Source of the DNA: Escherichia coli | Lineage (GTDB): Bacteria > Pseudomonadota > Gammaproteobacteria > Enterobacterales > Enterobacteriaceae | Length of the DNA stretch: 64,000 bases | NCBI RefSeq assembly: GCF_003991155.1 | Contig: NZ_CP031293.1 | Direction: 5' to 3' (one strand) | Part shown: positions 656-2,509 of the stretch, one piece after another | Position numbering within the stretch: position 1 is the stretch's first letter | Layout: each line of letters begins with the position of its first letter | Notes under the pieces: model-generated | Database searches by the model: none | What the model was told of the DNA's origin: nothing | What the model saw: the letters and a program-made list of their open reading frames with translations, nothing else | Position numbers and translations under genes: made by a program

Positions 656-2509
656 ATGAAAATGACTTTGCCGTTTAAACCCCATGTGCTGGCGCTAATT
701 TGCAGTGCCGGGCTTTGTGCCGCCTCTGCCGGGCTATATATAAAAAGCCGCACAGTGGAAGCGCCTGTGGAATCGCAATCGACACAACAGACTGCGCCTG
801 ACATCTCCGCAGTTACGCTTCCTGCAACGGTTTCCGCGCCTCCCGTAACGCCTGCCGTCGTCAAATCTACATTCAGCACTGCACAAATCGATCAATGGGT
901 CGCGCCCGTCGCGCTGTACCCCGACTCTCTGCTTTCACAAGTGTTAATGGCATCAACCTATCCGGCAAACGTTGCTCAAGCAGTGCAATGGTCGCACGAT
1001 AATCCACTTAAACAAGGCGATGCTGCTATTCAGGCGGTATCTGGCCAGCCGTGGGACGCCAGCGTCAAATCACTGGTGGCCTTTCCACAATTGATGGCAT
1101 TGATGGGCGAAAACCCGCAATGGGTGCAAAACCTGGGCGATGCTTTTCTGGCGCAGCCGCAGGACGTGATGGACTCGGTACAACGATTGCGGCAACTGGC
1201 GCAACAAACCGGTTCGCTAAAGTCATCAACTGAACAAAAGATCATCACGACAACGAAAAAAGTCGTACCGGTAAATCAGCCCGCCAACGCCCCTGCCACA
1301 CAATCAAATACCGTTTCTACGTCCAGCCCCGTCGTCGCAGAACCTGCACCGACCGTAATAACCATTGAGCCAGCCAATCCGGATGTGGTTTATATTCCGA
1401 ACTACAACCCAAACGTGGTTTACGGTAGTTGGGCCAATACCGCTTATCCGCCGGTTTACCTGCCACCACCAGCCGGAGAACCGTTTGTTGACAGCTTTGT
1501 GCGCGGATTCGGCTATAGCATGGGCGTTGCTACCACATACGCACTATTCAGCAGCATCGACTGGGACGACGACGATCATGACCATCATCATCATGACGAT
1601 GATGATTATCATCACCACGATGGCGGTCATCGTGACGGTAATGGCTGGCAACACAACGGCGACAACATCAATATCGACGTAAACAATTTCAACCGTATCA
1701 CCGGTGAGCATCTTACTGATAAGAACATGGCATGGCGGCACAATCCAAACTACCGTAATGGTGTGCCCTATCATGATCAGGATATGGCAAAGCGGTTTCA
1801 CCAAACCGATGTCAACGGCGGCATGAGCGCCACGCAGTTACCTGCTCCAACACGCGACAGCCAGCGTCAGGCGGCAGCAAGTCAGTTTCAGCAACGAACA
1901 CACGCCGCCCCCGTCATTACACGAGATACCCAACGTCAGGCAGCGGCACAGCGGTTTAATGAAGCTGAACACAATGGGAGCTATGACGACTTCCGCGAGT
2001 TCAGCCGTCGCCACCCACTGACCCAGCAACAAAAGGACGCTGCTCGTCAGCGTTATCAGTCGGCCTCTCCTGAGCAGCGCCAGGCAGTCCGCGAGAAAAT
2101 GCAGACTAACCCGCAGAACCAGCAGCGAAGAGACGCAGCGCGTGAGCGCATTCAGCCCGCCTCGCCTGAGCAGCGCCAGGCAGTCCGCGAGAAAATGCAG
2201 ACTAACCCGCAGAACCAGCAGCGAAGAGAGGCAGCGCGTGAGCGTATTCAGTCTGCATCACCTGAGCAGCGCCAGGCGGCCCGCGAGAAAATGCAGACAA
2301 ACCCGCAGAATCAACAGCAAAGAGATGCAGCACGTCAGCGTATCCAGTCTGCCTCGCCTGAGCAGCGTCAGGTTTTTCGAGAGAAAGTTCAGGAGAGCCG
2401 CCCGCAGCGTCTAAACGACAGTAACCATACTGCCCGATTGAATAATGAACAACGGTCAGCGGTACGCGAACGGTTGTCTGAGCGTGGAGCAAGGAGACTG
2501 GAAAGGTAA
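656..2509 (+). CDS. yacH: DUF3300-family protein YacH, with His/Asp-rich tract and internal tandem repeats
   Basis: 617-aa ORF in track; N-terminal signal-like hydrophobic segment; length and sequence match recollection of E. coli YacH. Confidence 0.9.
   Translation: MKMTLPFKPHVLALICSAGLCAASAGLYIKSRTVEAPVESQSTQQTAPDISAVTLPATVSAPPVTPAVVKSTFSTAQIDQWVAPVALYPDSLLSQVLMASTYPANVAQAVQWSHDNPLKQGDAAIQAVSGQPWDASVKSLVAFPQLMALMGENPQWVQNLGDAFLAQPQDVMDSVQRLRQLAQQTGSLKSSTEQKIITTTKKVVPVNQPANAPATQSNTVSTSSPVVAEPAPTVITIEPANPDVVYIPNYNPNVVYGSWANTAYPPVYLPPPAGEPFVDSFVRGFGYSMGVATTYALFSSIDWDDDDHDHHHHDDDDYHHHDGGHRDGNGWQHNGDNINIDVNNFNRITGEHLTDKNMAWRHNPNYRNGVPYHDQDMAKRFHQTDVNGGMSATQLPAPTRDSQRQAAASQFQQRTHAAPVITRDTQRQAAAQRFNEAEHNGSYDDFREFSRRHPLTQQQKDAARQRYQSASPEQRQAVREKMQTNPQNQQRRDAARERIQPASPEQRQAVREKMQTNPQNQQRREAARERIQSASPEQRQAAREKMQTNPQNQQQRDAARQRIQSASPEQRQVFREKVQESRPQRLNDSNHTARLNNEQRSAVRERLSERGARRLER
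2069..2400 (+). repeat. tandem 96-bp repeats (3 full copies plus 1 partial) inside yacH, encoding a repeated 32-aa SPEQRQAVREKMQTNPQNQQRR(D/E)AARERIQ motif
   Basis: Direct reading: cctgagcagcgccaggc... recurs at 2069, 2165, 2261 and 2357 with period 96. Confidence 0.85.

Follow-up and report, generated by a model that had tools for sequence, protein, structure and literature searches.

The stretch of DNA analysed here (hereafter the window) comprises 64,000 nucleotides of Escherichia coli contig NZ_CP031293.1 (assembly GCF_003991155.1), and its subject is yacH, a gene near the start of the window that contains two regions of in-frame tandem repeats. At the start of the window lies the 5' end of acnB, which is encoded on the minus strand, and yacH comes next; on the 3' side of yacH lie an IS110-family element and then lpd, which is on the minus strand and therefore convergent with yacH. 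The open reading frame (ORF) at 656-2509 was 100% identical to yacH of E. coli 2016C-3878 (NZ_CP029747.1), where it is annotated as yacH / 'DUF3300 domain-containing protein'. Its product matched the Pfam family DUF3300 (PF11737) over amino acids (aa) 75-333, with an E-value of 8.7e-78 and a score of 261.4 bits as compared with a cut-off of 25. As the match spans positions 2-227 of the 227 positions of the profile, the protein belongs to this family; no NCBIfam family was matched by YacH. The Pfam match and the annotation of the identical record showed that the gene name given in the original prediction, which had been made from the letters of the window, was correct. The gene was found in 5,425 of 5,426 complete E. 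coli genomes.

The first repeat region corresponds to a predicted Asp/His low-complexity tract, the existence of which was confirmed by the exact translation of nucleotides 1565-1639 to DDDDHDHHHHDDDDYHHHDGGHRDG. Twenty of its 25 residues are Asp or His; a count over 27 residues gave 11 D and 9 H, and the net charge calculated from the composition is about -10. In a six-frame scan of the 64-kb window, other stop-free stretches of 25 aa with at least 10 D/H were found only antisense to this tract. The proposal that it represents a disordered acidic/His-rich linker was supported by an AlphaFold2 model built on 88 homologues, in which the predicted local distance difference test score (pLDDT) was below 50 at aa 307-332, with a confident core on both sides. 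At the DNA level the tract is made of GAY/CAY codon repeats, including the 24-bp unit GACGATCATGACCATCATCATCAT, which encodes DDHDHHHH.

The second region is an array with a longer period. Tandem Repeats Finder identified 3.5 copies of a 96-bp period at 2036-2372 (88% matches, no indels, score 506), in agreement with the approximately 3.5 copies that had been predicted. The unit start that had been proposed, 2069, had to be corrected to 2066, which is the in-frame start, and the repeat peptide quoted at that time contained 30 of the 32 residues of the unit. The three in-frame units differ from each other at 6, 14 and 12 of 96 nucleotides. Their description as 'near-perfect' applies to units 1 and 2, which match at 90 of 96 nucleotides (94%), and less so to unit 3 (85-87%). 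The fourth copy, which starts at 2354, retains SPEQRQVFREKVQ and then diverges. The last 220 residues of YacH contain 41 Q, 40 R, 28 A and 19 E, with a net charge of +18, and one 32-aa unit contributes about +3, as counted from the sequence.

Most of the differences between units are silent in the yacH frame, the synonymous and non-synonymous codon changes amounting to 3 versus 2, 9 versus 4 and 8 versus 4 in the three comparisons. This indicates that the peptide is under constraint, and it also led us to discard the ORFs that overlap the array in other frames (2202-2492 on the minus strand and 2142-2414 in the +2 frame) as by-products of the repeats. The ratio of non-synonymous to synonymous divergence (dN/dS) was 0.17-0.33 in the units, 0.04 in the terminal tail and about 0.05 in the folded parts.

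Such repeats had been predicted to be prone to copy-number variation between strains, and this was supported by the finding of alleles with 2 to 5 SPEQR motifs. Even-step ('spread') samples were drawn from the 5,425 complete E. coli genomes holding yacH. The array had the length found in the window in about half to two thirds of the sampled genomes and was exactly one 96-bp unit shorter in about a quarter to a third. When the whole gene was considered (n = 60), 31 genomes had a length of 1854 bp, 15 of 1758 bp (-96) and 6 of 1764 bp (ST131 type), the rarer lengths being 1746 bp (2 genomes), 1782 bp (1) and 1806 bp (1). Three more were frameshifted or had an off-frame length (two were checked; for the third, H52, this was deduced from a span of 1815 bp), and in one genome the match was limited to 98 bp. 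With the array alone as query, 47 of 60 rows were interpretable; 32 of these had the length of the window, 15 had one unit fewer and none had an extra unit. In E. coli E69 (CP089930.1, 2501-5083 of locus L020), the match to yacH extends over 2,583 bp, with an ORF that stops after some 392 aa, which suggests an insertion interrupting yacH downstream of the D/H tract.

Ten other yacH alleles were fetched and aligned with the window allele. Six intact alleles and one frameshifted allele had one 96-bp unit fewer than the window, and the alleles of K-12 and CE10 had the same length as the window, but with a third unit of type B (VFKEKVQQRPLN) instead of type A. Described in this manner, the array of the window has the architecture AAAC. 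Among 120 Escherichia cluster representatives, AABC was the commonest architecture, AAC and ABC were also present, some arrays were not cleanly classified, and a single rare allele was one unit longer (AAABC, 648 aa). The intact ORFs of the length variants ranged from 581 to 662 aa. The 662-aa proteins, seen in two cluster representatives that we inspected (P0027 and P0029), contain a 45-aa (135-bp) tandem duplication of APVITRDTQRQAAAQRFNEAEHYGSYDDFHDFSRRQPLTQQQKDA just before the array (about 1910-2044), which represents a third independent length-variable site in yacH.

The D/H tract also turned out to be polymorphic in length, which had not been predicted. In the DNA alignment of the 11 alleles, the 24-bp unit was present in one copy in the window, two copies in GN02323 and three copies in UPEC_U013; the ST131-type strain 81009 had 6 additional bp (HD), and STEC306 had a 39-bp in-frame deletion. 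At least 18 variants of the tract, 12-28 aa long, were found among the 120 Escherichia protein-cluster representatives. In the sampled genomes, the tract had the same length as in the window in 50 of 59 cases, 6 more bp in six, 24 more in one and 39 fewer in two.

We considered the possibility that these length differences result from assembly errors, tandem repeats being a classic site for the collapse or expansion of sequence. Yet the genomes in the collection are complete-level assemblies, and the array spans about 340 bp, which is less than, or similar to, the length of a read. Furthermore, every difference amounts to an exact multiple of 96 and leaves the ORF intact, independent genomes of one lineage repeatedly show the same lengths, and alleles carry unit types (A, B, C) of different sequence. 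We therefore rejected this explanation, for which we see virtually no chance.

Alleles differ from each other by whole units (+/-96, +24/+48, +6 and -39 bp, and the 135-bp duplication), all of which are multiples of three, so that the reading frame survives. The window allele was found with 100% identity in 47 genomes and with 99.9% identity in 2 others; all 49 are 1854 bp long, and their sources are humans, cattle, poultry, dogs and water from several continents. The length of yacH was uniform within each of the K-12, O157:H7 and ST131 groups. These observations bear on the idea that yacH is a contingency (phase-variation) locus, switching the expression or the antigenic form of YacH at high frequency, as might be suspected from the occurrence of tandem repeats in a probably exported protein, from the many length variants in the protein database and from the existence of frameshifted alleles. 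However, the 96-, 24- and 6-bp units lie inside the ORF and shift neither the frame nor the spacing of a promoter, and the frameshifts observed in E. coli result from the loss of 1 bp at positions outside the repeats. Given the multiple-of-three units and the constant length within clonal lineages, phase variation was rejected as highly improbable.

The yacH array is thus a slowly changing, lineage-stable coding minisatellite, the variation of which is found between lineages and is not rapid. It has the three attributes of an in-frame coding minisatellite or variable number of tandem repeats (VNTR) locus, namely head-to-tail copies well beyond what chance would give, units that are multiples of three in an intact ORF, and copy-number differences between strains. 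The data show that yacH contains two repeat regions, both in frame, in which whole units are gained or lost and the lengths follow lineages. The reading frame being kept, the length variants are passed on as lineage markers and do not function as on/off switches. The source of the whole-unit changes would be slippage during replication, or unequal recombination of the direct repeats, and we consider this evolutionary part of the explanation highly probable.

A search of the available literature yielded no paper linking yacH to VNTR, to multiple-locus VNTR analysis (MLVA) or to tandem repeats. A close parallel to the yacH D/H tract is the Salmonella repeat STTR5, whose 6-bp unit encodes His-Asp and lies in the part of the Ni/Co exporter RcnA that forms its His-rich loop. 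STTR5, in yohM (rcnA), and STTR3, in bigA, are likewise tandem repeats of envelope genes, located between domains and made of in-frame whole units (PMC5183578). STTR5 mutates within outbreaks and over 50 generations of passaging (PMC5183578), unlike the yacH units, which are longer (96 and 24 bp), present in few copies and stable within lineages.

To place these repeats in the context of the protein family, we carried out an exhaustive search, which returned 9,469 DUF3300 representatives at 50% identity (E <= 1e-3). In most members of the family, the site of the D/H tract is occupied by a short turn with the pattern ALWG-x-x-DW-[G/H]-x-x-D-[VI]-N-[IV]-N-V-N-R-Y-N, in which 1-3 His are frequently present. 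The family alignment indicated that this turn (DW-[H/G]xxD-[IV]N[IV]N) is expanded into a long D/H(/Y/G) tract only in enterobacterial sequences. The tails of family members are of low complexity and rich in R/Q/G/S, with GGGGRR as a typical end. Among the matches listed, that of E. albertii retains the D/H tract and three 32-aa units, which are more diverged, and those of Kluyvera, Raoultella, Enterobacter, Buttiauxella and one more enterobacterium have D/H/Y/G tracts. The same five enterobacteria have repeats of about 17-20 aa with the pattern NPTxQQQQRR(D/E)xAKSH. Because the units of E. albertii are diverged and the other genera have different Q/R repeats, the near-identical 96-bp units are a recent amplification that took place within Escherichia, the periodic Q/R-rich tail itself being older. 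YacH resembles other DUF3300 proteins by its match to the hidden Markov model of the core, its signal-peptide-like N-terminus, its helical subdomain, the motif WxHxPxHRxGVxY and its low-complexity basic tail. It differs from the rest of the family by the long D/H tract and the 32-aa helical units, which were seen only in enterobacterial sequences.

The genomic setting was compared through a scan of species-representative genomes, which provided at least 8 loci and hence a thin taxonomic picture. Among the loci listed, the order acnB-yacH-lpd was conserved on both flanks in 5 of 8 and on one flank in 3 of 8. The usual partner of a DUF3300 gene is a DUF2950 (PF11453) gene located directly downstream, an arrangement that is typical, though not required by Pfam, and in rhizobia the two are reported to be universally co-located, with signal peptides (PMC4653623). 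A DUF2950 gene directly followed or overlapped the DUF3300 gene in 3 of the 5 non-Escherichia loci inspected; no such partner was present at an enterobacterial-type locus (L015). E. coli yacH has no DUF2950 neighbour, its downstream gene being instead lpd, on the opposite strand.

In the AlphaFold2 model, the protein starts with a hydrophobic helix comprising an ASA motif (aa 9-29), followed by a disordered stretch (aa 30-58). DUF3300 family members typically have signal-peptide-like N-termini, and YacH is probably secreted or periplasmic. The DUF3300 core consists of a helical subdomain (pLDDT 94-98 at aa 70-200) and a beta subdomain (aa 230-300 and 338-385) with pLDDT values of up to 95 (94-95 at aa 230-270); a core-only model had a predicted template modelling score (pTM) of 0.81. 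The segment that follows the D/H tract is well conserved: pLDDT was 81-94 at aa 341-380, no amino-acid difference was found between the window and K-12 at aa 330-397, and W360, H362 and R367 are nearly invariant in the 88 homologues. The D/H tract is predicted to be a disordered loop inserted at a conserved turn of the core. Helices were predicted at aa 400-415, 423-439 and 457-467 in the segment that precedes the array and, in the successive units, at aa 472-480/489-495, 504-514/518-532 and 536-547/550-564, with pLDDT values of 65-83 for units 2 and 3; each 32-aa unit is accordingly modelled as a pair of basic helices.

The function of YacH was not explained by any match in Pfam, in the PDB or at the level of the fold. 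A PDB sequence search with the whole protein retrieved only engineered FLAG/His tags, which aligned to the D/H tract. The only residues that are invariant in the alignment of the 88 homologues are T101, W133, G161, Q176, R179, A182 and L188. As none of these is obviously catalytic, a binding or structural role appears more likely than an enzymatic one for DUF3300.

Published reports point to a place for yacH in the sphere of envelope stress, without defining an activity. The gene is reported to be regulated by CpxR, protamine lowers the level of its mRNA, and survival of protamine is improved in the deletion mutant (PMC9600279). Under butanol, its expression is strongly reduced in a rob mutant (PMC7537768); ampicillin induces its promoter (PMC8865558), and the gene is listed in a genome-wide association study of conjugation and in a knock-out screen for recombinant expression (PMC8954029, PMC7376861).

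The reported CpxR regulation (PMC9600279), together with a His-rich metal site, would fit the possibility that the SPEQRQ units are of the LTXXQ type and that the tail functions in the periplasm as a chaperone or sensor module similar to CpxP/Spy/ZraP. In CpxP, helices start with LTXXQ, which ASPEQRQAVREKMQ resembles when inspected by eye. Yet Pfam scans of the tail alone and of the three units alone, at E <= 10, revealed no LTXXQ/CpxP family, the only matches being noise (HopA1 at 0.005, below its cut-off, and FAZ1_C and DUF3106 at 5.8). The PDB sequence search made for this comparison gave 0 matches, and S/T-P-E-Q is a generic helix N-cap. With no match to a family profile or a fold, we rejected a relationship of the tail to the CpxP/Spy LTXXQ proteins, which we consider very unlikely. 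Another point against it is that a search for the CpxR box GTAAA-N5-GTAAA, with at most 2 mismatches, found no site in the promoter region of yacH (304-655). Across the window this pattern had 63 matches, as compared with a mean of 46 in shuffled sequences, 1 of 100 shuffles reaching 63. The reported regulation is therefore not obviously explained by a canonical box at this locus. The only CpxR-like sequence that we noticed upstream of yacH, GTAAA-AACTTC-GTTAA at 501-517, was read by eye; its spacing is 6 instead of 5, which places it outside the pattern of the scan.

The features of the locus are listed in Table 1. No convincing sigma-70 promoter for yacH was found in a scan of the plus strand, and no RNA family was matched in Rfam at gathering thresholds (positions 1-4100, both strands). 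The GC-rich hairpin found past the yacH stop codon has a T-run on the minus strand, an A-run preceding it on the plus strand, and it would for this reason serve the convergent lpd side. The IS110-family element is IS621 (1,279 bp, 2596-3874), located in the REP-containing spacer between yacH and lpd. Its transposase ORF (2788-3768, plus strand) matches the Pfam families DEDD_Tnp_IS110 and Transposase_20, its flanks match the empty site of strain EC9682 at 98-99%, and the 2-bp sequence CT is present at both junctions, a duplication relative to that empty site. IS621 is the bridge-RNA-guided recombinase, the left non-coding end of which (about 2596-2787) would encode the bridge RNA; Rfam matched nothing at this end.

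Table 1. Features of yacH and its surroundings in the window, and paired genes at other loci
Feature	Position	Strand	Basis
yacH CDS, DUF3300-family protein	656-2509	+	ORF list; 617 aa plus stop
Hydrophobic helix at the N-terminus (aa 9-29, PHVLALICSAGLCAASAGLYI), probably a membrane anchor or a Sec signal peptide	680-742	+	AlphaFold2
DUF3300 core: helical subdomain (aa 75-185) and small beta subdomain, with a P/T/S/V-rich linker between them	878-1654	+	Pfam, AlphaFold2
Inter-subdomain linker, aa 201-236, dimorphic among E. coli alleles	1256-1363	+	Haplotype comparison, window versus K-12
Asp/His-rich tract, aa 304-328, predicted disordered acidic loop	1565-1639	+	Sequence, pLDDT <50, family alignment
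24-bp unit GACGATCATGACCATCATCATCAT (DDHDHHHH), 1, 2 or 3 tandem copies by strain	1571-1594	+	Alignment of 11 alleles
Conserved post-tract segment (INIDVNNFNR...WRHNPNYRNGVPY), family core	1652-1810	+	Homologue alignment, AlphaFold2
Degenerate Q/R-rich helical segments before the array (TRDSQRQAAA..., TRDTQRQAAAQRF..., TQQQKDAARQRYQSA)	1847-2065	+	Register print-out, AlphaFold2
96-bp tandem array, 3.5 copies	2036-2372	+	Tandem Repeats Finder
Three in-frame 32-aa units, predicted helix-turn-helix pairs	2066-2353	+	Units 2066-2161, 2162-2257, 2258-2353
Diverged last unit with the C-terminal tail (SPEQRQVFREKVQESRPQRLND...RGARRLER), two forms among alleles	2354-2506	+	Register alignment, allele comparison
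GC-rich hairpin past the yacH stop, terminator-like	2525-2545		Pattern scan, consensus match only
DUF3300-DUF2950 pairs outside Enterobacteriaceae	L012 4968-7439; L013 2236-4843; L017 1456-4199		

The comparison of the window with K-12 also provided information on the divergence of the gene as a whole. For yacH (656-2509), 8.7% of the nucleotides differed, with a synonymous divergence (dS) of 0.27, whereas the differences amounted to 1.2% in the flanking lpd (4030-5454) and to about 1% in the acnB 5' end (1-303). The gene is thus a local divergence hot spot. Across other genera, YacH is about 50% identical and Lpd 96-97% identical; the Lpd protein was identical in the strains checked. In the linker between the subdomains (aa 201-236), the comparison of the window with K-12 gave a dS of 0.83 and a dN/dS of 0.29. 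In the 150-nucleotide bin covering this linker (1256-1405), alleles fell into two haplotype classes that are 21-24% apart at the DNA level, and the tail (2354-2509) similarly showed two classes, 11-13% apart. CE10 and the ST131-type strain 81009 are recombinants of the linker and tail classes, the divergence being mosaic. A linker of the K-12 type was also seen in proteins labelled 'Escherichia sp.'; the sequence was inspected in cluster representatives of the same 581-aa type. Balancing selection or introgression may be the cause of the split between haplotypes.

These data raise the possibility that diversifying or balancing selection acts on YacH as an envelope protein, in which the acidic His tract and the variable-length basic tail would face an external agent. 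If so, cationic antimicrobial peptides, metals, phage and host immunity would be candidate agents, and repeat number may tune the interaction. This would fit the hot-spot divergence, the split and recombining haplotypes, the contrast in cross-genus identity between YacH and Lpd and the higher protamine resistance reported for the deletion mutant (PMC9600279). We regard it as rather improbable. The gene-wide divergence and dimorphism nevertheless represent a more interesting lead than the repeats themselves.

An opposite interpretation is that the loop and the tail are dispensable, disordered and subject to neutral drift, with no function depending on their length, and that yacH is drifting to loss in some lineages. 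Degraded copies are indeed found: 3 of the 60 sampled genomes are frameshifted or off-frame, one more matches over 98 bp only, yacH is interrupted in E. coli E69, and the gene is frameshifted in several strains of Salmonella Typhimurium (PMC3391293). In the latter species, an 8-bp deletion makes yacH a pseudogene in UK-1, 14028s, SL1344 and D23580 (PMC3391293, PMC10048834); its sequence (GATCATCA at codon 284) would place this deletion in the His/Asp-coding tract. Strains lacking the gene are viable and have even shown higher fitness in certain assays (PMC9600279, PMC7376861), and tails differ wildly across the DUF3300 family. By contrast, drift does not account well for the mostly synonymous differences between units, for the low dN/dS values in the terminal tail and in the units, for the presence of the gene in all but one of the complete genomes or for the conservation of the 32-aa unit structure in E. 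albertii. Overall, we consider neutral drift plausible, though less likely than not.

The explanation that we favour, with some confidence, is that yacH has two in-frame coding repeat regions in a probably exported DUF3300 protein, with distinct proposed roles. The acidic D/H loop would be grafted on the conserved, His-bearing turn of the DUF3300 beta subdomain and, to judge from its composition, would most likely bind divalent cations or titrate with pH. His/Asp-rich flexible loops occur in periplasmic metal proteins, such as the His-rich loop of ZnuA and the tails of ZinT and ZraP. On the basis of composition, these resemble the yacH tract by their H/D runs, predicted disorder and location in the envelope, though there is no sequence or fold relationship, and the match of the Pfam family ZrgA was noise (E 8.4). 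Each 32-aa unit would form a short amphipathic pair of basic helices, extending the Q/R-rich tail. In the wider family this tail would be replaced by a disordered R/G/Q-rich tail, usually ending in RR, so that the number of units would set the length and charge of a basic appendage, which would probably contact anionic envelope components or a partner protein. This biochemical part of the explanation, a cation-binding or pH-titrating loop combined with a basic helical appendage in contact with the envelope or a partner, is tentative, and we would not count it as probable.

Several observations weigh against the proposed explanation. The pLDDT of repeat unit 1 was below 50, so that the helix-pair model is only moderately supported, and the alignment is shallow over the Escherichia-specific repeat region. 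Export was deduced only from the hydrophobic N-terminus. The D/H tract is less variable than suggested by the list of cluster representatives, since a single length accounts for 50 of 59 genomes, and the length variation could be selectively neutral.

Taken for what it is, the variation described here is real but ordinary, an in-frame coding repeat polymorphism in a fast-evolving gene for a probable envelope protein. In practical terms, the length of the gene provides a lineage-stable marker, and the varying number of 96-bp units, together with the 24-bp D/H unit and the additional 6 bp of the ST131 type, explains why yacH is distributed over many protein clusters and is at times mis-called. 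With its local excess of divergence, flanked by two highly conserved housekeeping genes, yacH is a candidate for studies of selection. For the large, uncharacterised DUF3300 family, the anatomy of YacH, with a novel-looking core, an acidic His loop and a basic tail, offers a starting point.

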